64,000 bases of DNA. It comes from an uncultured Candidatus Pelagibacter sp. GTDB lineage: Bacteria > Pseudomonadota > Alphaproteobacteria > Pelagibacterales > Pelagibacteraceae. The notes below the pieces were generated by a model, which did not search any database, had not been told where the DNA came from, and was given only the letters and a program-made list of their open reading frames with translations. Positions 5,809-60,616 of the stretch are shown piece by piece. Location of the stretch: the NCBI GenBank assembly GCA_905612495.1, contig CAJQSF010000012.1, positions 13,147 to 77,146 of the forward strand, given 5' to 3'. The position numbers were made by a program, and so were the translations under genes. Within the stretch, counting starts at the first letter, position 1; each line of letters starts with the position of its first letter.

Positions 5809-5836
5809 TTGACAAAGTTAAATTAAACAGTATTTT
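5809..5836 (+). promoter_or_regulatory. Putative sigma70 promoter of the str operon
   Basis: TTGACA (5809-5814), 16 bp spacer, TATTTT (5831-5836) upstream of rpsL. Confidence 0.5.
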
Positions 5837-5842
5837 GACGAT

Positions 5843-5946
5843 GTTTTTGGTTGGAATGTAGTACCTACTTTAAGGAACTAAACGCTGCCACAAAATAACC
5901 TGTCAGTTATTTTCATTCAAAAATAAATTAATTAATTAAAAAATTT
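5843..5946 (+). promoter_or_regulatory. Putative structured rpsL 5' leader
   Basis: Long intergenic region for this genome; perfect hairpin AAAATAAC-ctgtca-GTTATTTT at 5892-5913. Confidence 0.4.
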
Positions 5947-40970: not shown

Positions 40971-42341
40971 TTGTCTAAAGTATTAAAATTAACCAAAGAT
41001 CCCATTTGGGAACTACTTAGAAAAGTAACAATTCCAGCTAGTGTTGGTTCTTTATTTCAAACATTTTATAATCTAGTTGATACTTGGTTTGCTGGTAGAA
41101 TTTCTGCTGAAGCTATAGGTGCTATCGCTAAATCATTTCCTATATATTTTGTAATAATTGCTGTTGGTGTTGGTATTGGTGCTGCAACAAACTCATGCAT
41201 TGGTAATTTATTAGGTGCAAAACAAGATAATAAAGCATCATTGTTAATCGCTCAATCTGTAATCTTTGCACTGATTATTTCTGTTGTTGTCACATTGTTT
41301 GGATTAAATGCATCTAATTTTCTTCTAACAGTAATGGGCTCTGATGCAGCTAGTATAGTTTTAACAAGAGAATATTTAGATATAATTTTTTATGGTACTT
41401 TCATTGTAATGATTCAAATCTCTTTAAATGGAGCCTTGAATGCTCAAGGAGATACTAAAAGTTATAGAAATGTTTTAATATTTAGCTTCTTTTTAAACAT
41501 ATTTTTAAATCCATTATTTATATGGGGATATGGAATTGTTCCAGCTTATGGTATAGGTGGTCTTGCTATAGCAACTGTAATTGCACAGTCCGTAGGTACT
41601 TTTTATTTAGCGTATAAAATCTACGCATGTAAATTGAAAAAGTATCTATCAATTAAATGCTTTATTCCTAAATTAATATTATTAAAAGAATTATTCACGC
41701 AAGCGTTACCTATTATGATTAGCATGCTGTTTATTGGTGTAGGTATTTTTAATATTCTATATTTTATTGGTCAATTTGGTGATCTTGCAACAGCTGGTTA
41801 TGGTGCAGCCTTAAGAGTGGAGCAAGTTTTTTTATTACCAGTTATTGGATTGAACACTGCAGTACTTTCTATTGGTGGACAAAATTTTGGTGCTAAGAAT
41901 TATGATCGTATAAGAGAATTATATTCTAAAGCTCTATTATTCGGATCATCTTTTATGGCTATAGCAGGTGTTATATTATTTTTTGGTGCAGAGTTTTTTG
42001 TATCTCAATTTACAGATAACCAAGAAGCTATATTTCATGGTGCTATATATTTAAGAATAGCTGCATTAATTGCGCCTGTTTACCCTGTGTTTTTTATAAC
42101 TACAGCTGTATTCCAAGCTGTTAAGAAACCTATCTATAGTCTTTATTTAAGTGTTTTAAGGTTATCAGCTTTACCTTTCTTGTCTCTTTGGTATGTAATT
42201 AATATTAAAGGTGGGGATTACTCGGATATATTCTACACTATAATGGTAACCAATTGGTTTATAGGTATTGTAGTAATTATATTCATTGGATATTTTTTAA
42301 ATAATGTTTTTAAACAAAAAAAAAATCATTTTAGTTATTAG
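40971..42341 (+). CDS. MATE-family efflux transporter
   Basis: YNLVDTWFAG, GDTK, LNPLFI, GQNFGA; about 12 TM. Confidence 0.93.
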   Translation: MSKVLKLTKDPIWELLRKVTIPASVGSLFQTFYNLVDTWFAGRISAEAIGAIAKSFPIYFVIIAVGVGIGAATNSCIGNLLGAKQDNKASLLIAQSVIFALIISVVVTLFGLNASNFLLTVMGSDAASIVLTREYLDIIFYGTFIVMIQISLNGALNAQGDTKSYRNVLIFSFFLNIFLNPLFIWGYGIVPAYGIGGLAIATVIAQSVGTFYLAYKIYACKLKKYLSIKCFIPKLILLKELFTQALPIMISMLFIGVGIFNILYFIGQFGDLATAGYGAALRVEQVFLLPVIGLNTAVLSIGGQNFGAKNYDRIRELYSKALLFGSSFMAIAGVILFFGAEFFVSQFTDNQEAIFHGAIYLRIAALIAPVYPVFFITTAVFQAVKKPIYSLYLSVLRLSALPFLSLWYVINIKGGDYSDIFYTIMVTNWFIGIVVIIFIGYFLNNVFKQKKNHFSY

Positions 42342-42789
42342 TGTTTCTTCACTAATATTTTTCATAATTTTTAATCAAGTCAAATCACAAGATCTTAGAG
42401 TTGTAGATGGCGACACAATTCATCTTAATGGAGAAAAAATTAGATTTACCGGAATAGATACACCTGAGTTAAAACAAACTTGCCTTAAAGAAGGTATTAA
42501 AGATCCTTGTGGAGTTAAAGCAAAACAAATCCTAAATAATAAAATTGGAAAAAATGATGTTGAGTGTATTAGTGAGGGAATTGATAAATACAAAAGAACA
42601 TTAGCTGAATGTTTTGTAAATAATGAAAGTCTATCGAGCTATTTAGTTAGAAGTGGCTATGCATTTGCTTACAGAAGATATTCAAAAAAGTTTGTACAAG
42701 ATGAGGATTATGCAAGAATCAATAAAATAGGCATGTGGTCTATGGAGTTTGATTATCCTTGGGATTATAGAAAATCTAAAAAGAATTAA
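42304..42789 (+). CDS. Thermonuclease (SNase) family exported nuclease
   Basis: N-terminal hydrophobic segment; VVDGDT, IRFTGIDTPE, DKYKRTLA. Confidence 0.92.
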   Translation: MFLNKKKIILVISVSSLIFFIIFNQVKSQDLRVVDGDTIHLNGEKIRFTGIDTPELKQTCLKEGIKDPCGVKAKQILNNKIGKNDVECISEGIDKYKRTLAECFVNNESLSSYLVRSGYAFAYRRYSKKFVQDEDYARINKIGMWSMEFDYPWDYRKSKKN

Positions 42790-42797
42790 AGCTATAT

Positions 42798-42937
42798 GGG
42801 GCGTTCTGTTACCCGGTGCCCCAGACCGTGCTTCTATAATCCTTATTTTGCAACAGGGTTGCCTTAGCAAATAGCAGAAGTTTCAACTAAATTACACCCG
42901 TATTACGCCCAGCATTTTAGTGCTAGGGTACCGGTTC
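42798..42937 (+). repeat. Junction repeat R1 (core plus right arm only; left boundary)
   Basis: 38-bp core at 42798-42835; right arm ATAATCCTTATTTTGCAACAGGGTTG...GCAAATAGCAGAAGTTT; no left arm. Confidence 0.95.
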
Positions 42938-43891
42938 ATGAAAAAGATTTTAGGGATCCTAGTTCTGGGTTTGTTGTGGTGCAATGCTTTACCAGCCAAA
43001 ATTCTTAATATAGAAAACAAAATACAAATAGAGGTTCCATCTAGTCATAAGTTTATCAAATATGACAATGAAGAGGTAAGAGAGTCTATTGATGAATTTA
43101 CAGATTCTATAGACGGAATGGAGATAGATCTCTATCTAGTTGGTCCTAGCAAATATGTGGATTTTGAAAAAGCAATGATGGATGGAGAAGATCCAATGGA
43201 TAATGAATACGTAAAAGCAATAATGAAAAAATTAGAAAAAAAAAATTTTCAAAACGAAGATAAGGCTCTGAAATGGATTATCTCTGAATCAAAAAAAATA
43301 ATGAAAAAGGAGAAGATTGACTTCATCACATATATACTTATTTCAAATAAAACTCTGATAGAAATGCTACCAAATGATGATGAAATTGTTGATATGTTAA
43401 CAGAGCTTCAATCAATGAATAATTCAGAGTTAATTCAACAAACAAAAGAAATTAAAAAAGAGATAGCAACTTTGGAAGGTGCTAATAAACAAAGGATTTT
43501 AGCCGGACCTACTTCATTTACATATAATAAGTTTAAAATTGCAAAAAATGAATATGGAAATTTATTTTTAAAAGGTCCCAGTAAATTTTTTATGGCAATT
43601 AATGAATACTTAACAATAGATGCAGTATTGAATGTTTATTTGGCAGAGCATAACAACAAAACTTATTTTTTTATATCAGCGTGTTACGTGAACTGTTCTA
43701 AATTTAGTAATAAATTTGATAAAATGATAAAACCTACGTTTTCAACAAATGTGCAAACTCAAAAATCAAAAAGTAGTTTGTCTGGTGATAGTAATTTAAC
43801 TGAACAGTTAAAAGCTTTAAGTGAACTATATAAATCTGGAGCTTTAACTAAAGAAGAGTTTACAAAAGCAAAAAAGAAACTTTTAAACTAA
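42938..43891 (+). CDS. Exported hypothetical protein with C-terminal SHOCT-like domain (cassette 1)
   Basis: MKKILGILVLGLLWCNA signal peptide (ATG 42938); ends LKALSELYKSGALTKEEFTKAKKKLLN. Confidence 0.85.
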   Translation: MKKILGILVLGLLWCNALPAKILNIENKIQIEVPSSHKFIKYDNEEVRESIDEFTDSIDGMEIDLYLVGPSKYVDFEKAMMDGEDPMDNEYVKAIMKKLEKKNFQNEDKALKWIISESKKIMKKEKIDFITYILISNKTLIEMLPNDDEIVDMLTELQSMNNSELIQQTKEIKKEIATLEGANKQRILAGPTSFTYNKFKIAKNEYGNLFLKGPSKFFMAINEYLTIDAVLNVYLAEHNNKTYFFISACYVNCSKFSNKFDKMIKPTFSTNVQTQKSKSSLSGDSNLTEQLKALSELYKSGALTKEEFTKAKKKLLN

Positions 43892-44108
43892 AAATTACGC
43901 CCAGAGTACGCTCAAAAATAATCCAAACACCAATCAGCATTATAGATAAAGAATGGATTAGTTATTAAGGGGCGTTCTGTTACCCGTTGCCCCAGACCGT
44001 GCTTCTATAATCCTTATTTTGGAACGATGTTGAAACACTGAAAGCCAGAAGTTGTTACTGAATTGTGCCACTATTGTGCCAAGGATTATTGTGCTAGGAT
44101 CAGGGTTC
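43892..44108 (+). repeat. Junction repeat R2 (left arm, core, right arm)
   Basis: Core at 43969-44006 with 1 mismatch to R1; left arm AAACACCAATCAGCATTATAGATAAAG; TTGTGCCA direct repeats at 44063-44081. Confidence 0.95.
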
Positions 44109-45341
44109 ATGAAAAAACTTTTAGGGATCATCATTCTTGGTTTGTTGTTAAGTGGGAACGCTTATGCAGATGTTAATGAACCTGGAGTAACGTCTATTGC
44201 AGGGTGTGATAGTGGTCTTAAATCGGTAAACCAAAAATTTATAAAAAAACATTTAAAAAAATTATCAAAAAAAAATGAAACTAGTGTTCTCTATGCCAGT
44301 TGTGATTATGATAATTATTCTTGGGCAGTTAATAAAGGCAAGGACTTAGAAAAACTTCATAAGAAAACATATAAACAATGTACGAAATATGCCGAGAAAC
44401 ATACGGGCAAAGAATGTTATTTGTATGCAGTTAATGAAGAAATTGTTTGGAAATACGACAAGGCTAAAGCATCCACCATAGCAAAAACTAAAATAGCAGA
44501 AGCAAGTGTGTTAATAGAAAAAAAAAAAGAATTAGATAAGAAACCAGGAAGATTTTTTGAAGATCAACCTGATGTAAGTGATGATTTTCAATTCCATTTA
44601 ATTTATTTTTTAGACAATAAAACTAAAGATAAGGAAAGAGATATATCTGGATATATTGAGAAAGAAATGAAAAAAGCTGATGATGCTTTTTTTAAAATGA
44701 CTAAAAACAAACAAAGATTTAAGTTTGATTATAGAGAAGATGGAAAACTAGATGTGACTTTCGTTAGAATGGATAGAAAAGCAAGAAGTGGTGGATGGAA
44801 TGTAAATTATCCAGATTATTATCTAACAAAAAATGGTTTTAATAACCCTAAAAAAATGTATTTATCTTTTACCGACTCTGCTAGCGGAGATGGGGGACAA
44901 ATGGGCCCACATCATGGGTATATTTTTATAGGTAAAGCAGGCTCTCAGTATCCTCAAATTATAATTCATGAAATGCTGCACGGTTTAGGTTTTGCTATGC
45001 CTTGCACAATAGGAGTACAAGATGGAGCCCACATGGGTTCTGGAATTTTAGCACGGGGTGGAGGATTACAACTTCCAAAAGCACTTTATGGTCATGATGA
45101 TTCAACATGTCCAGATTTAAAAGACTCTGTTTATTTAACCCCAACATCAGACAACCCTTTTGATCCTCTACCTATTGCATGTGCTTTAGGACAAATGAAA
45201 AGAGGCAGTCCCCCAGGTAATTTTGAAATTCCTGCTAGATACACCCATAAAAAACTACTCAAAGGTAGAAAGAATGAGTGGTGTACATATAATGTCCATA
45301 CTTATGCTAAAGATGATTGGTTTAAACAGTGGAAAAAATAA
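44109..45341 (+). CDS. Exported putative zinc metallopeptidase (cassette 2, gene 1)
   Basis: MKKLLGIIILGLLLSGNAYA signal peptide (ATG 44109); Cys-containing N-domain; HEMLHGLG (HExxH) at 44967-44981. Confidence 0.75.
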   Translation: MKKLLGIIILGLLLSGNAYADVNEPGVTSIAGCDSGLKSVNQKFIKKHLKKLSKKNETSVLYASCDYDNYSWAVNKGKDLEKLHKKTYKQCTKYAEKHTGKECYLYAVNEEIVWKYDKAKASTIAKTKIAEASVLIEKKKELDKKPGRFFEDQPDVSDDFQFHLIYFLDNKTKDKERDISGYIEKEMKKADDAFFKMTKNKQRFKFDYREDGKLDVTFVRMDRKARSGGWNVNYPDYYLTKNGFNNPKKMYLSFTDSASGDGGQMGPHHGYIFIGKAGSQYPQIIIHEMLHGLGFAMPCTIGVQDGAHMGSGILARGGGLQLPKALYGHDDSTCPDLKDSVYLTPTSDNPFDPLPIACALGQMKRGSPPGNFEIPARYTHKKLLKGRKNEWCTYNVHTYAKDDWFKQWKK

Positions 45342-46326
45342 TCTTAATTATTATATCTTTATTTCTAATAACTAATGCTTTTGCAGACGAATGTTATACT
45401 TCATCTTTAGACACAACACCTGTAATTCTTGAGTCAGATAAAAAACCTGGTAGGTTTTTTTTAGATCAGCCAGATGTCAATGATGATTATCAAATTCATA
45501 TTGTTTACTCACTTTTAAAAGACTCTAAAGATAAAGAAGGAGACATTAATGGAGCTATAGAAAAATGGATAGAAGCATCTGATAAATATATTTTAAAAAC
45601 TACAAAAAAAGCAAATGAAAAATCTGATTTTAAAAATGGTATAGCTCAAAACATAAAATGGGACAGAAGAAAGGATGGAAAATTAGATATTAGCTTTATT
45701 AGAATAAATAAGACTAAAAAAGAAGTAAAAAAATCCCCCTCAGGAAGTTGTGGAAATGTTTTTGGCAGAACAATAGTTAATGCAGGATTTAATAACCCTA
45801 AAAAAATTTATTTTAATTTTGGAGATTATTCTTTTAAAGAATGGCCTTACTCTGGTGGTTTTCCAATATTTAGTATATTCAATAAACATCAAAAAAAATA
45901 CCCTCTTAAAAAAGTGAATTCGGATATTTTGTTTTACATGAGGTTATTCATGCAATGGGAGGTATTTTTACCTGTTCACCAAAATATACTAAATATGTAC
46001 ATAATACAAAAAAAACTAGTGATTTGATGAGTAGTGATGGTGACGGTAGAAACAATACATTGGACCCAAAGAATGATGACTATTGGGGTCATAATAATAA
46101 AAGTTGTCCGGATATGCAAGACAGTGTTTACTTTACACCAACATCAGATACTCCTTTTGACCCTTTTGAAGTCACATGTTTGCCAAAAGAAAAATGGAAA
46201 TTTACAAAACATGATTATAAAAATATTAAAGATATAAGAGGTACTGGTGAAATGTGCTTTTATAAACGTAGAGATGTTTCAGCCCCGTGGGAAAATGAAC
46301 TTGGAATATTTCGGAAATTTAATTAA
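45329..46326 (+). pseudogene. Frameshifted paralog of the upstream HExxH peptidase (cassette 2, gene 2)
   Basis: ORFs 45329-46027 and 45955-46326 each align to 44109-45341 (DKKPGRFFxDQPDV; CPDxxDSVYxTPTSDxPFDP); one extra A in the A6 run at 45908-45913 fuses them and restores HEVIH. Confidence 0.8.
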
Positions 46327-46334
46327 AAAAATTA

Positions 46335-47327
46335 ATGAAAAAACTTTTAGGGATCGTGGTTCTGAGTTTGTTACTGAGTAGTAATGTTTATTCTAAAACA
46401 ATAGTGGTTAAAGCTAATCCAGAAAAAGGTTTTAATTTTCCTTATTTGTTAAAAACTTCAAAAAAAACTTCAGATGCAAAATATTTAATTGTTGAGTCAA
46501 ATAACACTGGTAACGGTAAATCAATAAAAGATATGACTAGTAAAGCTAAAAAGTCTCTAGGTTGGGTTTTGGGTTCTGATATTGCAAAAAAATTAAATTT
46601 TCCTTTATTAATGCCTGTTTTTCCATTCGCTACTAAAGAAATTGAAAAAGATCTACCCAATTTAAAATGGCATTATTATTTTCCACAATTAGATAGCGAC
46701 ACTATAAAAATAAATAATAATAAATACAAAAGAATTGATTTGCAGTTAATTGCCATGATTGACGATGCAAGAGAAAGATTGTTGAAAGAAAATAATCAAA
46801 GTATAAATGAAAAGGTTATTTTTACTGGTTTTTCATCATCCTCTTTATTTGCAGCAAGATTTACTTTTTTAAATCCAGACAGAGTATCAGTTGCAGTTGG
46901 TGGAGGAATAGGAGGTTTGCTACCTGTTCCAGCTGATAAAATTGATGGAATTGAAACTATATACCCTATTGGAACGTATGATTTTGTAAAAATTACTGGA
47001 AAAAAATTTAATCTAGAAGAATACAAAAATACACCTCAATTTTACTGGCAAGGAACAAAAGATAAATCAAATCCATTTAGGAAAGGTGCTGAAGATTTAA
47101 CAGATAAAGAGTTTGGAATAGTAAAAAAACTTTTTGTAGATGGGCTACCTTTTGCATCAAGTCCTGTTTCTTTAGAAGTTAATACTGTGATGTGGAAAAA
47201 TTCTCAAAAATATATAAATCAAATTGTAGATAATGTTAAATTTGAAAGCCCAAAAAACTTAGGACATCAAATAGATAATAAAATGCTTCTTAAAAGTGCA
47301 AAATTCATAAAAGAAAACTTAAATTAG
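46335..47327 (+). CDS. Exported alpha/beta-hydrolase-like protein (cassette 2, gene 3)
   Basis: MKKLLGIVVLSLLLSSNVYS signal peptide; FTGFSSSS nucleophile-elbow-like motif, GTKD, C-terminal GH. Confidence 0.6.
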   Translation: MKKLLGIVVLSLLLSSNVYSKTIVVKANPEKGFNFPYLLKTSKKTSDAKYLIVESNNTGNGKSIKDMTSKAKKSLGWVLGSDIAKKLNFPLLMPVFPFATKEIEKDLPNLKWHYYFPQLDSDTIKINNNKYKRIDLQLIAMIDDARERLLKENNQSINEKVIFTGFSSSSLFAARFTFLNPDRVSVAVGGGIGGLLPVPADKIDGIETIYPIGTYDFVKITGKKFNLEEYKNTPQFYWQGTKDKSNPFRKGAEDLTDKEFGIVKKLFVDGLPFASSPVSLEVNTVMWKNSQKYINQIVDNVKFESPKNLGHQIDNKMLLKSAKFIKENLN

Positions 47328-47339
47328 GATTAATTTATA

Positions 47340-47555
47340 AATTGTGCCACTAGTGTGCCAAAGGTCTACTTAAGGAATAATCATCATCATATATAAAGAT
47401 AAGTAGGTGAGTATGAAGGGGCGTTCTGTTACCCGGTGCCCTGGACCGTGCTTCTATAAACCTAATTTTGTAACAAAGTTGCTACAACTTAACCTAGAAA
47501 CTATATAAAGTTCTATACAGATTGTATGTTGATTTTGTGCTAAGTTTTTTAATTC
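47340..47555 (+). repeat. Junction repeat R3
   Basis: Core at 47418-47455 with 2 mismatches to R1; left arm begins AATTGTGCCACTAGTGTGCCA. Confidence 0.95.
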
Positions 47556-48173
47556 ATGAAAAATGTTTTAGGAATTATATTTTTTATCTTATTTTGCAAC
47601 CTTGCATCTGCAGCAGACAAATATGAAGGTGCAGGTGAATTAAAACTCGGTGATCCTGATATTAATGTATTTATGGATTACATAAAACCTCCTGCTGGTC
47701 AAGTACCAATGATATTTTTAGTATTGTCAGAAAATGGTAAAGCTATCTGGTCAACTTACTGGTATTGTCCTGAAGGTAACTGTCAAACATTAAACAAAAA
47801 CCGAGCATCTATTATGTGCACTCAAGATGCAGAGAAATTTTATGAGAGAACGATTACTGAAGAATGCAAAATTTTTGCAAGAAGAAGAACTATCGTTTGG
47901 AAAAATGGAATAAATACTGGAAAAGGTAAAGTTTCTAGAGTTAAAAGTAGATGGAAAAAAAATGAGGTTATGGCGAAATTAGAAGAACTTGGTTTTCTAG
48001 GTAACAGCACATCATCAATCGATACTACTAAACCTAAAATTACTGAGAAGAAAAAAGAAAATAAGAAATCAGATGATATTGCTAGCCAAATAAATAGTCT
48101 AAAAAAGTTGTTAGATGATGGTGTTATTTCAAAAGAAGAATTTAAGAAAGCTAAAAAAAAAATATTAAATTAG
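47556..48173 (+). CDS. Exported Cys-containing hypothetical protein with SHOCT-like tail (cassette 3, gene 1)
   Basis: MKNVLGIIFF..ASA signal peptide; ECKIFARRRTIVWK; ends LKKLLDDGVISKEEFKKAKKKILN. Confidence 0.85.
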   Translation: MKNVLGIIFFILFCNLASAADKYEGAGELKLGDPDINVFMDYIKPPAGQVPMIFLVLSENGKAIWSTYWYCPEGNCQTLNKNRASIMCTQDAEKFYERTITEECKIFARRRTIVWKNGINTGKGKVSRVKSRWKKNEVMAKLEELGFLGNSTSSIDTTKPKITEKKKENKKSDDIASQINSLKKLLDDGVISKEEFKKAKKKILN

Positions 48174-48174
48174 T

Positions 48175-49116
48175 TTGAAAAAAATTTTAATAATAATATT
48201 ATTTAGTTCCTTGATTTCCACAATCGTAAATTCAGATATTAAACAAAGATATTCAATAGGAGAAAAAATTACTAATGAGGTTATTTTAGATAATAAAATA
48301 AGTATTGATTTGAGTGATGGCGTATGGGAAGTTGTTGAAAGAACAGGATGGAGATGGGGCAACTATACAGGAGAATATATTTTTATAATCAAAGCTAATG
48401 AAAAGGAAATTGTCGAAAGTATATCGCTTAGTTTTTTAAATACAGGTGGCAAGAGAATAGCAGATGTAAATTCATGGTTATATGAAGTTGTATTTGTAAA
48501 TAAACACGACGGATGTTACAAAAGACCTGAGTATTACAAGTTAGAATTGTTTCACAAAGGAGCAACAATAAATTGCATGATAATATCTCACACAGATATC
48601 AATAAAGAGATTTATAATCCAGATGATAAAGAGTTTGCTTATCTAAATGAAAAAATAGTTAGTTGGATTCATGAAAATTCAATAGAGTTACCTAAGATTA
48701 TGCTTACATCTGAGCATATTTTTTTTTCAAGGTCGGCATCTTCAAAGTTTTATGGTTATTCACACTCTATAAACCCTAAATTTTTTGAAGGTCCAAAAAC
48801 AAAATTTATAACAGAAGATACAAGTGAATATCATCCATTTAATATAGACAAATATCCTATACATGAAAAATTTATGAATAACTTTATGTCATCACAGTCA
48901 TTAATACATGTAAGTTTAGAAGAAAATATAGGAATTAAAGATTATCAAAAACTTGAATTGTCAAAATATATAAACAAAAAAACTGAAACTAAAAAATCTA
49001 ATGGTACAGATAAAGGTGATATTGTTAGTCAGATAAAAGACTTAAAAGAGTTATTAGATACTGGTGTAATAACACAAGATGAATTTGTTAAGGCAAAGAA
49101 GAAAATTTTAAATTAA
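48175..49116 (+). CDS. Exported hypothetical protein with SHOCT-like tail (cassette 3, gene 2)
   Basis: TTG start, MKKILIIILFSS signal peptide; ends LKELLDTGVITQDEFVKAKKKILN. Confidence 0.85.
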   Translation: MKKILIIILFSSLISTIVNSDIKQRYSIGEKITNEVILDNKISIDLSDGVWEVVERTGWRWGNYTGEYIFIIKANEKEIVESISLSFLNTGGKRIADVNSWLYEVVFVNKHDGCYKRPEYYKLELFHKGATINCMIISHTDINKEIYNPDDKEFAYLNEKIVSWIHENSIELPKIMLTSEHIFFSRSASSKFYGYSHSINPKFFEGPKTKFITEDTSEYHPFNIDKYPIHEKFMNNFMSSQSLIHVSLEENIGIKDYQKLELSKYINKKTETKKSNGTDKGDIVSQIKDLKELLDTGVITQDEFVKAKKKILN

Positions 49117-49310
49117 AAATTTTGAGCTATGTGCGAACAAATGTAACTCAAAGAATAATCAACATTATAAATAAAGAGAAGTAGAAGAGTGTGTAGGGGC
49201 GTTCTGTTACCCGGTGCCCCAGACCGTGCTTCTGTAATCCTAATTTTGTAACAAAGTTGCTTTCGCAAATAGCAGAAGTTTGGGCTGAATTACGGATTGA
49301 TTGTGGATCA
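49117..49310 (+). repeat. Junction repeat R4
   Basis: Core at 49196-49233 identical to R1; right arm shares GCAAATAGCAGAAGTTT with R1. Confidence 0.95.
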
Positions 49311-49362
49311 ACTATCTTATTATAAACTTGATAACCAGCTATTAAAAATGTATCTATAAATT

Positions 49363-49728
49363 ATGTTAAAGACTTTCATCGCAATACTTTCTTTAGCTGC
49401 ACTTGTTTCTTGTGCTTCTATTGTTAATGATCCAACTGTGCCTGTTACACTATCTTTTAGTGATGGTAGCAGCGGAAACTGTAAGTTAACTAATAAACGT
49501 GCAGCTTATAACGTTGAAGTTCCAGGTACAAATATGATCAGAAGATCAGACGATCCATTAAGATATGATTGCGTAACAAATTCTGGCAAAAAAGGATATG
49601 GAAGCATACCAAGCGAAATAGAAGGCGCAAAATTAGCTGGAAGCGTTCTAATAGACTTTGGAATCACCGACTCAATTACGGACAAACATAGAACCTATAC
49701 TCCTAACTTTGTAGTACCTATAAAATAA
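49363..49728 (+). CDS. Small hypothetical lipoprotein (cassette 4)
   Basis: MLKTFIAILSLAALVS-C lipobox-like signal. Confidence 0.8.
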   Translation: MLKTFIAILSLAALVSCASIVNDPTVPVTLSFSDGSSGNCKLTNKRAAYNVEVPGTNMIRRSDDPLRYDCVTNSGKKGYGSIPSEIEGAKLAGSVLIDFGITDSITDKHRTYTPNFVVPIK

Positions 49729-49833
49729 AATTAGGGCTGTGCTACGTATAAAAGCAATTTAAACACCAATCAGCATTATAAATAAAGAAAAGTAGGAGAG
49801 TTGTAAGGGGCGTTCTGTTACCCGGTACCCCAG
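49729..49833 (+). repeat. Junction repeat R5 (left arm plus truncated core; right boundary)
   Basis: AAACACCAATCAGCATTATAAATAAAG arm, then 27 bp of core (49807-49833, 1 mismatch), then unrelated sequence. Confidence 0.92.
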
Positions 49834-49849
49834 CTTTCTAATTAATCTT

Positions 49850-50110
49850 TTATTTGATAGTTTTGAATAGTCTTTCACCCAAAGGACTGACTGGGTCTTG
49901 AGGTGTAGGTTCAATATTAGTTTTTTCTTCAACAATACTTAATAGCTTTTTAGCAAGTCCTTTACGCCTGAAGATTGGATTAACGAAAATATACTCAACT
50001 TCAGCCTGTTTATTATATCTAACAAAACCAAGTGTAGTATTAATATTTTTAAATGTAACAACACCGTCACTAAACGAAATATCATAGTTTGTGCTATTTA
50101 ATTCATTCAT
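49850..50110 (-). CDS. Small GNAT-family acetyltransferase-like protein
   Basis: IFVNPIFRRKGLAKKLL acetyl-CoA-binding motif A. Confidence 0.75.
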   Translation of the reverse strand: MNELNSTNYDISFSDGVVTFKNINTTLGFVRYNKQAEVEYIFVNPIFRRKGLAKKLLSIVEEKTNIEPTPQDPVSPLGERLFKTIK

Positions 50111-50850
50111 TAGTTATTTCCATCTTTCTTAAGTTTTTTTTCTAATTTCCTTACGAAGAAAGAAACAATTAATATTAAAATTAAATATTCTAGAATTAAG
50201 AACGTATAAATTTCAAGAGGTCTATATGTTGAAACAACTAGTTCATTAGCCTTTCTAGTTAGATCTGCAATTCCAATTATTGATACCAATGAAGACATTT
50301 TCAAAACATAAACAAACTGATTACCGAGTGCAGGTAAAATATTTTTTATTGCCTGTGGAAGTATTACCAATCTTAATCTTTTATAAAAAGTTAGACCCAA
50401 TGATGAGCCAGCCTCCCATTGTGATTTTTTAATTGAATTAATTCCTGCTCTAAAAATTTCAGCTTGAAAGGCACTTTCGCTAATTGCTAATGCAATAATA
50501 CCTGAAACAAATGGACTAAAGCTTAATCCTGTCATTATAGGAAGACCGTAGTAAACCCACAAAATTAAAACTAGCAATGGTATAGCTCTTACAATTTCAA
50601 CGTATCCAATATTTATGTAAGTTAAAAACTTATTCTTAGCTAAAGAAGGTATTGCAACTACAAATCCCAAAAACATTGATATTATAATTGAAATTACTGA
50701 AATATAGATTGTCAAACCCATCCCACTTAAAAGAAATTTTAAGTTAGTTAAACCATTAACCTTGTTTGGAGAAAGTATATACCAGGCCCACTCATGTTCT
50801 GTGCCACATGATGTTAATATTAAGGGTAATAGTAAAATTAGTTTTTTCAC
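50110..50850 (-). CDS. Polar amino acid ABC transporter permease
   Basis: YVEIVRAIPLLV, AEIFRAGI, QWEAGSSLG (EAA loop), ILPQA. Confidence 0.95.
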   Translation of the reverse strand: MKKLILLLPLILTSCGTEHEWAWYILSPNKVNGLTNLKFLLSGMGLTIYISVISIIISMFLGFVVAIPSLAKNKFLTYINIGYVEIVRAIPLLVLILWVYYGLPIMTGLSFSPFVSGIIALAISESAFQAEIFRAGINSIKKSQWEAGSSLGLTFYKRLRLVILPQAIKNILPALGNQFVYVLKMSSLVSIIGIADLTRKANELVVSTYRPLEIYTFLILEYLILILIVSFFVRKLEKKLKKDGNN

Positions 50851-60146: not shown

Positions 60147-60616
60147 TGAACAAAAAAACCAATCCTGGTTTAAAAATTATTTGTTTAAATAGAAAAGCAA
60201 GTTTTAACTATTTTTTTGAAGAATTAATAGAGGCAGGAATTGTACTCAAAGGATCTGAGATCAAATCAATAAGAGATGGCAAAGTTAATATAGCCGATTC
60301 ATATGCTGTAGAAAAAGATGGTGAGATAGTTTTAATTAATTCTCATATTGCTGCTTTCAAACAAGCTAGTTATTCAAATCACAATCCAATGGACGAAAGA
60401 AAACTTTTATTAAATAGAAAAGAAATTAATAAATTAATTGGTAAAATGCAGAGAGATGGTTTAACGCTCGTTCCAACAAAGATGTATTTTAAAAAGGGCA
60501 AGGCTAAAATAGAAATAGCAGTAGCTAAAGGGAAAAAGCAATTCGACAAAAGAGCGACTAAAAAAAATAAAGATTGGAATCGTGAAAAAGCAAGACACAT
60601 CAGAAAATCTAGCTAA
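60146..60616 (+). CDS. smpB: SsrA-binding protein
   Basis: [32 protein letters not shown]. Confidence 0.98.

Follow-up and report, generated by a model that had tools for sequence, protein, structure and literature searches.

Copies of the ssrA 3' end as probable attachment sites of integrase-less gene cassettes at a locus away from ssrA in a SAR11 genome

Introduction

It is known that genomic islands targeting tRNA or tmRNA genes carry in their attP a copy of the 3' end of the gene. Integration leaves a direct repeat of this end, and stacking of several elements leads to arrays. The tyrosine-integrase islands and prophages that use such targets were reportedly classified by Williams in 2002. 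The CIMEs of the Firmicutes ICE/IME systems have att sites at both ends and no recombination or transfer genes, and are presumed to be mobilized in trans. Phage lambda and other temperate phages can also attach at secondary, non-canonical core-like sites, which results in hybrid ends. The ssrA-specific islands of Dehalococcoides include units without an integration module, which were proposed to be cis-mobilizable and gathered by accretion (McMurdie et al. 2011, PMC3146451). Their 20-bp repeats are all located at most 100 kb downstream of ssrA, and their DsiB is a CcrB-like serine recombinase (PMC3146451).

SAR11 bacteria are generally said to have almost no mobile elements, and a single tmRNA-linked island is noted in the available portion of the literature. 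This island is in the SAR11 cassette paper of 2025 (PMC11796062), whose available text also describes partial tRNA repeats that mark cassette insertion, and only one integrase across all of its data. In the Arctic SAR11 study (bioRxiv 10.64898/2026.10.07.757358), the variable regions recur at the same positions and contain hardly any mobility genes. Mobility genes were almost absent from both of these recent population studies, and one of them, in its available part, states that the variable regions are not associated with tRNA or tmRNA genes.

Here we describe an array of five copies (R1 to R5) of the 3' end of ssrA, located away from this gene in a SAR11 genome. The window is the whole stretch of 64,000 nucleotides that was analysed. 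It comes from a draft assembly (G000) of 844 kb in 60 contigs, 63% complete and with about 30% G+C. Each copy is called O; four cassettes, A to D, lie between the copies, and in the orientation of ssrA an arm X follows O and an arm Y precedes it.

The array resembles tRNA/tmRNA-targeting islands in that R1 to R4 match the ssrA end at 40 to 43 of 43 positions and in that the site is unoccupied in some relatives; a textbook case of this class exists in the same genus (G108: ssrA, O, 13.9 kb, integrase, O). The array differs from the class in its boundaries, formed by a GNAT stub on one side and an SNase gene on the other instead of an intact target gene, in its apparent position at a secondary site remote from tRNA and tmRNA genes and with no integrase inside, and in the target: the coding piece of a permuted tmRNA is used at its 3' end, and not the end of a tRNA-like acceptor or T arm. 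Like a CIME, each cassette has the form O-X...Y-O without recombinase or transfer genes. However, the units are much smaller than CIMEs, often consist of a single gene and form arrays of up to seven, and their mobilization is here something that we infer. Rows of promoter-less cassettes of one to a few genes, in one orientation, separated by recombination sites and without their own recombinase, are reminiscent of integrons, but IntI, attI and Pc are absent and no PF00589 gene was found in or beside the array. Moreover, the sites are not attC hairpins but ssrA-derived direct repeats with arm modules, and each junction is a full attP-like unit. In contrast to the secondary sites of lambda, which are rare and used once, the site here is itself a copy of the ssrA end, inherited across species and repeatedly reused. 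Compared with Dehalococcoides, the array is unlinked to ssrA, the units are only 0.6-3.4 kb and almost none has an integrase, the ssrA gene is in two pieces, and the candidate enzyme is probably a tyrosine recombinase. The available text of PMC11796062 makes no mention of tmRNA-end repeats away from the tmRNA gene, of the arm structure or of the integrase family described below.

The repeated core

The core, a 36-mer, is at 42798-42833 on the plus strand, and its reverse complement is as first quoted in the original prediction. Four matches to it were found in the window when up to three mismatches were allowed. Its 25-nt stem-loop part occurs five times, always on the plus strand and thus in direct orientation, starting at 42798 (R1), 43969 (R2), 47418 (R3), 49196 (R4) and 49807 (R5). 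No match to the core was obtained in 100 shuffles of the sequence; none is expected by chance. The coordinates 42798-42833 given in the original prediction hold for the 36-mer. They do not hold for the extent of the unit, since the block identical to ssrA has 43 nt and reaches 42840, and conserved arms extend about 45-100 nt on each side of it.

On the minus strand, the core can form a stem of five base pairs, GGGGC/GCCCC. This stem had been pointed out before, together with its retention in R5, where the minus strand reads GGGGT, through a G-U pair; both are present. In R3, however, the minus strand reads AGGGC and a stem pair is broken, and the folding energy of O is not better than that of shuffled sequences (z = +0.8 for the minus strand and -0.5 for the plus strand, where the hairpin has an energy of -11.9 kcal/mol). 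The hairpin was therefore rejected as a signal on either strand and is no evidence by itself. What goes beyond chance is the repetition together with the identity to ssrA. A scan of 42600-50200 for promoters and terminators showed no consistent sites in the junctions, and promoter-like matches were fewer than in shuffles.

Identity to the native ssrA

The source assembly has one genuine two-piece tmRNA gene, at positions 4656-4956 of contig C35, which is separate from the contig of the array. It scores 223 bits with the Rfam alpha_tmRNA model (RF01849), and ARAGORN recognized it as a permuted tmRNA with the tag ANESYAIAA. The 25-mer is exactly the 3' end of this gene. When the repeats were aligned with the last 43 nt of the gene, the identity was 43/43 for R1, 42/43 for both R2 and R4, 40/43 for R3 and 30/43 for R5; in R5, the contiguous match comprises the 25-nt core and 2 nt more. 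In the Rfam alignment of this ssrA, the core occupies roughly the last 40 model positions, up to 355, and its bases fall on the conserved end of the family consensus, ...ACCuGGCAACAGAA.acCucC. The repeats themselves score 21-31 bits with the same model, through these last positions alone, against a gathering score of 50; the longest such sub-threshold match in the array is at R4 (49192-49351, 31 bits).

The likeness of the minus strand of the core to the 3' end of alphaproteobacterial tmRNA, which the original prediction had put forward, is thus borne out by the gene of the same genome as well as by the Rfam alignment, and the identity over all 43 nt exceeds the near identity over 30 bp or more that had been proposed as support. 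The absence of an ssrA gene from the window was also correctly anticipated: ARAGORN and Rfam found no tmRNA gene there, the RNA matches being a tRNA-Ser(gct) and an rpsL sRNA. Likewise, no tag frame and no tRNA-like domain adjoins any copy in the window, as had been stated, and the Y arms keep a diverged relic of the tag end. The distance to smpB, given before as about 10 kb, is 10.3 kb from R5 to the gene at 60179-60604.

The native ssrA of the source assembly has neither an X arm nor a second O copy. The gene thyX adjoins it, as it does in seven metagenome open frames. In all five genomes of the same genus that were checked, ssrA is in another part of the chromosome than the locus of the array.

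Anatomy of the array

The array is bounded on one side by an SNase-family gene (42304-42789, plus strand; PF00565, E = 2e-18), which is the chromosomal flank B', and on the other by a GNAT acetyltransferase stub of 86 residues (49850-50110, minus strand), which covers positions 40-80 of the 128 positions of the Pfam profile and forms the B side of the site. ABC-transporter and sox operon genes are located beyond the stub. In the orientation of ssrA, that is, on the minus strand, the order is ABC permease, GNAT stub, O(R5)-X-D-Y, O(R4)-X-C-Y, O(R3)-X-B-Y, O(R2)-X-A-Y, O(R1), SNase end. All O blocks and arms are given below in this orientation, and all cargo genes are on the plus strand, antisense to the ssrA fragments.

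R1 (42798-42840) is the terminal O block and has an attR-like arrangement, Y-O-B'. It is followed by the Y arm of cassette A (42841-42937), which consists of a diverged relic of the ssrA interior and short repeats of the GGGCGTAAT type. The cargo of cassette A (42938-43891) encodes a secreted-type protein of 317 residues with a C-terminal SHOCT domain (PF09851, E = 6.9e-8), and shares 82% identity with metagenome contig L089 over 973 nt. The X arm of this cassette (43892-43968) is of a kind common to R2-R5, and none is found to the left of R1. The next O block is R2 (43969-44011).

Cassette B is the largest and is composite. Its Y arm (44012-44108) contains the repeat GGCACAATAGTGGCACAAT, and the distal part of this arm has its best match in the X arm of the same cassette (score of 17, against 6-8 for the other Y arms). 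The cargo (44109-47327) comprises open reading frames of 410, 232, 123 and 330 residues, which include tandem paralogous segments; a second signal-peptide start is present at 46335 with no att site before it. The X arm of B (47328-47417) and R3 (47418-47460) follow. Cassette C has a Y arm at 47461-47555, two genes for SHOCT proteins of 205 and 313 residues at 47556-49116 (PF09851, E = 3.9e-8 and 1.3e-7) and an X arm at 49117-49195, next to R4 (49196-49238). Cassette D consists of a Y arm (49239-49362), an open frame of 121 residues without a Pfam match (49363-49728) and an X arm (49729-49806) with an exact copy of the X motif CTTTATTTATAATGCTGATT. R5 (49807-49831), where the 25-nt core and 2 nt match ssrA, is the proximal att copy and has an attL-like arrangement, B-O-X.

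The arm X, which contains CTTTATTTATAATGCTGATT, is thus common to R2-R5, and the arm Y, a diverged copy of the ssrA interior, to R1-R4. Since X is on R2-R5, Y on R1-R4, GNAT at R5 and SNase at R1, the arrangement corresponds to tandem integration at one attB. The X arms are 73-80% identical to each other. The distal parts of X and Y contain short direct repeats that differ by cassette, for example GGCACAnTAGTGGCACAAT and GGGCGTAAT; co-variation of the two arms is clear for B (score of 17) and A (score of 11) and weak for C and D. It should be mentioned that modules of this length and conservation (43 nt of O and about 45-100 nt of arm) could also support RecA-dependent exchange. The cargo genes start about 95-125 nt after the core, and several of them share the signal-peptide start at the DNA level. 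No recombinase was detected in 42300-50200 by Pfam and profile searches, and neither recombinase nor transfer genes are among the cassette genes, which encode SHOCT-domain or uncharacterised proteins.

The locus in related genomes and metagenomes

The same locus, called the pad hereafter, is found in empty, occupied and decayed states. In G041, a closed chromosome of the same genus, it is occupied by other cargo: the GNAT and ABC genes are at 672375-674770, the SNase and MatE genes at 676392-678210, and two core copies lie between them. The ssrA gene of this chromosome, at 1027231-1027530, is 352 kb away. In G146, 25 kb separate these flanks; the GNAT-O junction can still be recognised despite its decay, and all the cores present are decayed. 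The GNAT-O junction is orthologous in the source assembly, G041 and G146. It was found in four further genomes among 140 of the same genus; the pad-bearing subclade includes G205, G253, G460 and G472 besides the three genomes named above, and in G205 and G253 the junction alone recurs. The site is empty in G050, since the flanking genes abut: the stop codon of the SNase gene is next to that of the ABC permease gene, there is nothing core-like between them, and the GNAT stub is absent. In G008 and G032, the SNase remnant and the permease gene are separated by about 100 bp at most, also without the GNAT stub. The idea that the pad had grown from a pseudo-site visible in G050 was rejected, as this empty site contains no core-like sequence.

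A scan of metagenome contigs for O together with X gave more than 120 contigs. The pad was identified in at least eight marine metagenome contigs; the GNAT match is full in L049, L057, L077, L080 and L160 and partial in L134, L148 and L151. The SNase-side att copy was also seen in L130. L077 shows the complete single-cassette form, namely permease, GNAT, O, X, one gene, Y, O and SNase. The cassette content of the pad in L049 is different. Contigs with an arm of CCTGTTGC repeats were set aside; they represent ordinary chromosomal contexts.

The core is present in 117 of 151 family genomes, many of which have 2-7 clustered copies, and the arrays reach seven copies. Copies distant from ssrA occur in 5 of 20 closed or near-closed genomes of the same genus. 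G041 has three loci with copies. An unpublished genome (G068) is among the samples for this tally and for the PF00589 tally of 150 genomes given below; no specific claim depends on it. Judging from these comparisons, the pad is an inherited and repeatedly reused secondary site. The suggestion in the original prediction of an ssrA-derived att core serving as a stand-alone landing pad is supported by the array, which is unlinked to ssrA, and by the 352 kb between pad and ssrA in the closed chromosome.

Hybrid end sites and the putative crossover

The two outermost copies differ between genomes. The SNase-side copy is perfect in the source assembly and L148, and ends as ...ACAGAAC-TACCC-TGCTAG in L077, L130, L151 and G041. 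On the GNAT side, the copy varies in its left half alone (GGGT, AGTT or TCGC) and has no mismatch from AACAGAAC on. Furthermore, copies beside integrase genes share only 12-17 nt of O, ...ACAGAACGCCCC. Because the hybrid end sites change near AACAGAAC and the left half on the GNAT side varies, a crossover in or next to AACAGAAC(GCCCC) would fit; it is predicted to fall within AACAGAACGCCCC. The functional part of O is probably its last 13-23 nt. The pattern of the end sites also suggests that the ancestral pad was already a copy of the ssrA end, not a random pseudo-site.

The same cassette family at native ssrA

In the relatives G041 and G146, the order beyond native ssrA is O, X, one cassette, Y, O, flank, and both arms are of the type seen in the window. 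The presence of similar cassettes at native ssrA, which the original prediction had proposed to look for, is therefore seen in these relatives and not in the source assembly, where X and a second O are missing. Among the first 80 metagenome contigs there were 17 native ssrA-O-X junctions and 25 Y-O-X junctions.

One cargo gene connects the two kinds of site. The gene at 46335-47327 in cassette B is 98% identical over 992 nt to positions 1260-2251 of L074, whose array is attached to a native-type ssrA end; this contig begins within that end, with the authentic tag end and the hairpin. A copy in L061, preceded by a Y-O-X junction, shows 97% identity to this gene. L080 joins the GNAT side to the flank that is found beyond the ssrA-linked cassette in G041 and G146. 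Short metagenome contigs such as L080 may be chimeric across repeats.

In Logan unitigs of public runs, branching occurs at 42840, where the O block ends, and in one run a branch leads into native-type ssrA sequence. The unitigs also contain many joints between repeat copies with short sides; these joints were not counted as evidence of excision, and depth was not used to rank the cassettes. Neither a circular junction nor an excision product was observed.

A candidate integrase family

None of the PF00589 matches in 150 family genomes is near a core copy. The only extra integrase of the source assembly is beside a tRNA-Leu gene, on contig C42. With a home-made profile, an integrase remnant was recognized in contig L109. 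It is a C-terminal piece, 96% identical to the protein P0001, and ends about 75 nt before a short O that is followed by the X arm described here. A 5'-truncated integrase copy is part of an array in L158 that also has this X arm, so that neither of the integrase copies associated with the arm is complete. Their full-length relatives have 420-424 residues and no Pfam annotation, and are common in marine assemblies (216 and 256 members in clusters at 90% identity).

A profile of this new family, A5, had matches in 10 of 401 family genomes, and three of the matches adjoin ssrA-type O copies. In G108, which belongs to the same genus, the tmRNA gene is followed by O, an island of 13.9 kb, the integrase and a short O; the cargo of the island includes type I R-M genes, a serine resolvase and a Schlafen/AlbA_2 protein. 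An ssrA gene accompanied by an integrase, which the original prediction had also proposed to look for, accordingly exists within the genus. In G300, the integrase is followed by four O copies, and in G075, an integrase fragment lies between the O of the ssrA end and another O. No A5 member is encoded in the assembled 63% of the source genome.

An R-H...Y pattern is visible in the C-terminal part of A5. Among the close relatives of the L109 remnant, only P0011 gave any PF00589 match, at E = 0.041; the member at G054:C2:233446-234633, which scores 234 bits with the A5 profile, reaches 39.4 bits. Since one member passes PF00589, A5 is probably a divergent tyrosine recombinase family. A profile search of the PDB with A5 gave no match, and a search of IMG/VR and a pattern scan of species-representative genomes gave no confirmed member.

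Several further candidates were discarded. The pattern of O together with X had no match in IMG/VR. Exact matches to the core there were rejected as attP sites; they are on low-GC, myophage-like contigs with complete phage tmRNA genes. Additional matches to a 16-nt pattern in IMG/VR, on high-GC contigs, are due to chance. A crude motif screen of the first 80 metagenome loci yielded two candidates, both false, and no integrase was among the 25 most frequent families listed in a Pfam scan of the 133 open frames of these loci.

Discussion

The five O copies are best explained as the attachment sites of four integrase-less cassettes, which were stacked by site-specific integration at a secondary attB and moved in trans by a divergent tyrosine integrase; we give this reading a probability of about 70%. 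The secondary attB would be a copy of the ssrA 3' end that became lodged, together with the GNAT stub, between two convergent genes in the ancestor of a subclade of this SAR11 genus. Each cassette unit would have its own attP in the order Y-O-X, in which Y retains a diverged remnant of the inner part of ssrA and X is conserved and about 45 nt long. Circles with such an attP may integrate repeatedly into the single attB, which would give the arrangement B-O-P' ... P-O-B'. The cassette-specific direct repeats in both arms resemble arm-type binding sites and might serve as such. Integration and excision would be carried out in trans by a tyrosine integrase of 400-424 residues, encoded by rarer islands or elements that use the same O, and the cassettes would then be cis-mobilizable elements. 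The link between cassettes and integrase is circumstantial: integrase remnants occur next to this X arm, and one cargo gene is found at both a native and an ectopic site.

The alternative that deserves most attention is homologous recombination alone, with O, X and Y acting as portable homology for RecA-mediated double crossovers and unequal exchange and the att anatomy being a fossil. The window and the surroundings of nearly all arrays contain no integrase, and the modules are long and similar enough for such exchange (43 nt of O; X arms 73-80% identical). Homologous replacement is also favoured by the Arctic study (bioRxiv 10.64898/2026.10.07.757358), and the arrays of mixed type and the L080 junction have a recombinational appearance. 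However, homology alone cannot produce a first insertion, either at the pad or at native ssrA. The boundaries are exactly at the ssrA end, the hybrid end sites switch within about 10 nt of AACAGAAC, and the 12-17 nt of O shared by the integrase-proximal copies are too short for RecA; in addition, integrase genes of one family are beside O in four independent places. As the sole cause of the array, homologous recombination is therefore unlikely. As a partial account of present-day cassette turnover, recombination between the modules is a serious rival.

If the locus were the relic of an ancestral ssrA gene that collected islands here and lost its 5' part after a functional copy had settled at another place, the distance of 10.3 kb to smpB and the weak ssrA-like stretch (TTAATTA-GAA-GC) that R5 keeps over about 20 nt past the core would be explained. 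Such an origin is quite improbable, given that the flanking genes abut or nearly abut without a trace of ssrA in the more distant G050, G008 and G032, that ssrA is elsewhere in 5/5 genomes of the genus and beside thyX in the source assembly and the seven metagenome frames, and that no tRNA-like domain or tag frame survives. The co-orientation of the cargo genes, their starts about 95-125 nt after the core, the signal-peptide start shared at the DNA level and the plus-strand hairpin of -11.9 kcal/mol could instead point to a regulatory module (terminator, promoter or 5' UTR) duplicated with tandem paralogs, its likeness to ssrA being incidental. An identity of 43/43 is not incidental, the cargo proteins of different cassettes are unrelated, and in relatives this module is found directly next to the genuine ssrA; with junctions free of any consistent promoter- or terminator-like site and a hairpin energy at the level of shuffles, this explanation is very improbable. 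Finally, the repeats are longer than typical k-mers and the public-run unitigs branch at 42840, so that a draft in 60 contigs and 63% complete might have misjoined an ssrA-linked array to an unrelated locus. The arrangement GNAT, O ... O, SNase is present on the closed chromosome of G041, the GNAT-O junction is present in G205 and G253, and both kinds of junction are found in many independent metagenome contigs. A chimera is hardly credible against this evidence.

The array thus belongs to a known kind, that of ssrA-targeting integrative elements with accretion and cis-mobilizable cassettes, as in Dehalococcoides (PMC3146451). What is new is an att site away from ssrA that seems to be inherited as a pad, the hybrid end sites, the tiny units and an integrase family without a significant Pfam match.

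No bacterial group is more abundant in the ocean than SAR11, whose flexible genome is made up of many small cassettes found repeatedly at the same positions. Surveys limited to the surroundings of annotated tRNA and tmRNA genes would miss ssrA att copies at other loci, and annotation-based searches miss the matching integrases because these have no significant Pfam match. For part of the variation in SAR11, integration at O by a trans-acting enzyme offers a testable mechanism, with O, X and Y as substrates and a candidate enzyme. A broader proposal, for which the present data make only a tentative case and which may well turn out to be wrong, is that SAR11 runs an integron-like cassette economy, in which ssrA ends copied to several places in the chromosome serve as heritable pads, one-gene cassettes with attP arms of their own shuttle between ssrA and pads, and the integrases are rare and invisible to Pfam. 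If true, this economy would explain some of the small "metaparalog" cassettes; these recur at fixed positions, and no mechanism for them has found acceptance so far.

Contents of the cassettes

Several cassette genes of the window, which are otherwise unrelated, share a signal-peptide start (TTCATGAAAAAACTTTTAGGGATC...) that is conserved at the DNA level. It is found at 42935-42994, 44106-44165, 46332-46391, and 47553-47585, and dozens of metagenome cassettes begin with the same sequence. At the other terminus, three of the cassette proteins in the window end in a SHOCT domain (43790-43891, 48090-48173, and 49030-49116). SHOCT, with nine members, likewise ranked first among the Pfam families listed for the 133 open frames of the metagenome loci.

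In cassette B (44700-46200), paralogous segments (repeat families D6, D7, D11, and D13) are arranged in tandem at intervals of approximately 935-1000 nt. The frames overlap at 45329/45341 and 45955/46027, which suggests a duplication followed by frameshifts. An "empty" unit was observed in the metagenome contig L109 (2128-2260): a short copy of the ssrA end and the conserved X arm lead directly into sequence resembling the Y arm on the other side, with one copy of the short repeat GGCAAACTGATGGCACAAT in between. It looks as if the cargo of this unit was deleted between its two arm repeats.

Other loci of the same genome and of relatives

In the window's own genome, approximately 1.9 kb separate the end of the native ssrA from the flank shared with the relative G108 (L042:2741-4656, contig C35). 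This stretch is not conserved in G108, and no second copy of the ssrA end was found within it. On another contig, C42, a 425-aa integrase (PF00589) lies directly upstream of tRNA-Leu(tag) (L041:8365-9778); it probably belongs to an island or prophage at this tRNA gene, without relation to the ssrA-derived pad. The rpsL sRNA in the window (5835-5927; Rfam RF01823, 90 bits) is ordinary.

Additional arrays of ssrA-end copies, away from the native gene, are present at other loci in G041 (C1:609000-616000), where tRNA-Ser(tga) lies approximately 700 nt from the array, and in G008 (C1:542500-547500). In the metagenome contig L080 (754-1500), the GNAT side of the pad continues through one cassette into the flank that is found, in G041 and G146, on the far side of the ssrA-linked cassette. 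This junction arose either through rearrangement of one array with the other or through chimeric assembly of the contig. In G146, the interval between the SNase and GNAT genes (C1:503000-530000) contains 25 kb of other genes, and its core copies are all decayed. It represents either a run of former cassettes that is old and fixed, or another island.

Viral tmRNA genes

Eight IMG/VR viral contigs (L025-L032) contain complete tmRNA genes of the permuted type (88-156 bits), for example at L030:1670-1967 and L026:9767-10060, and each of these genes ends in the exact 25-nt core. Seven of the eight encode the tag ADENLALAA, and the remaining one encodes AKTINADENLALAA. Genes were examined on two of the contigs, L030 and L026; both contain genes of myophage type, among them nrdA and nrdB. 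Two-piece tmRNAs are known to be carried by phages, namely Melnitz and pelagimyophages (PMC9004378). It is noteworthy that the last 25 nt of the viral tmRNAs are identical to the att core of the host.
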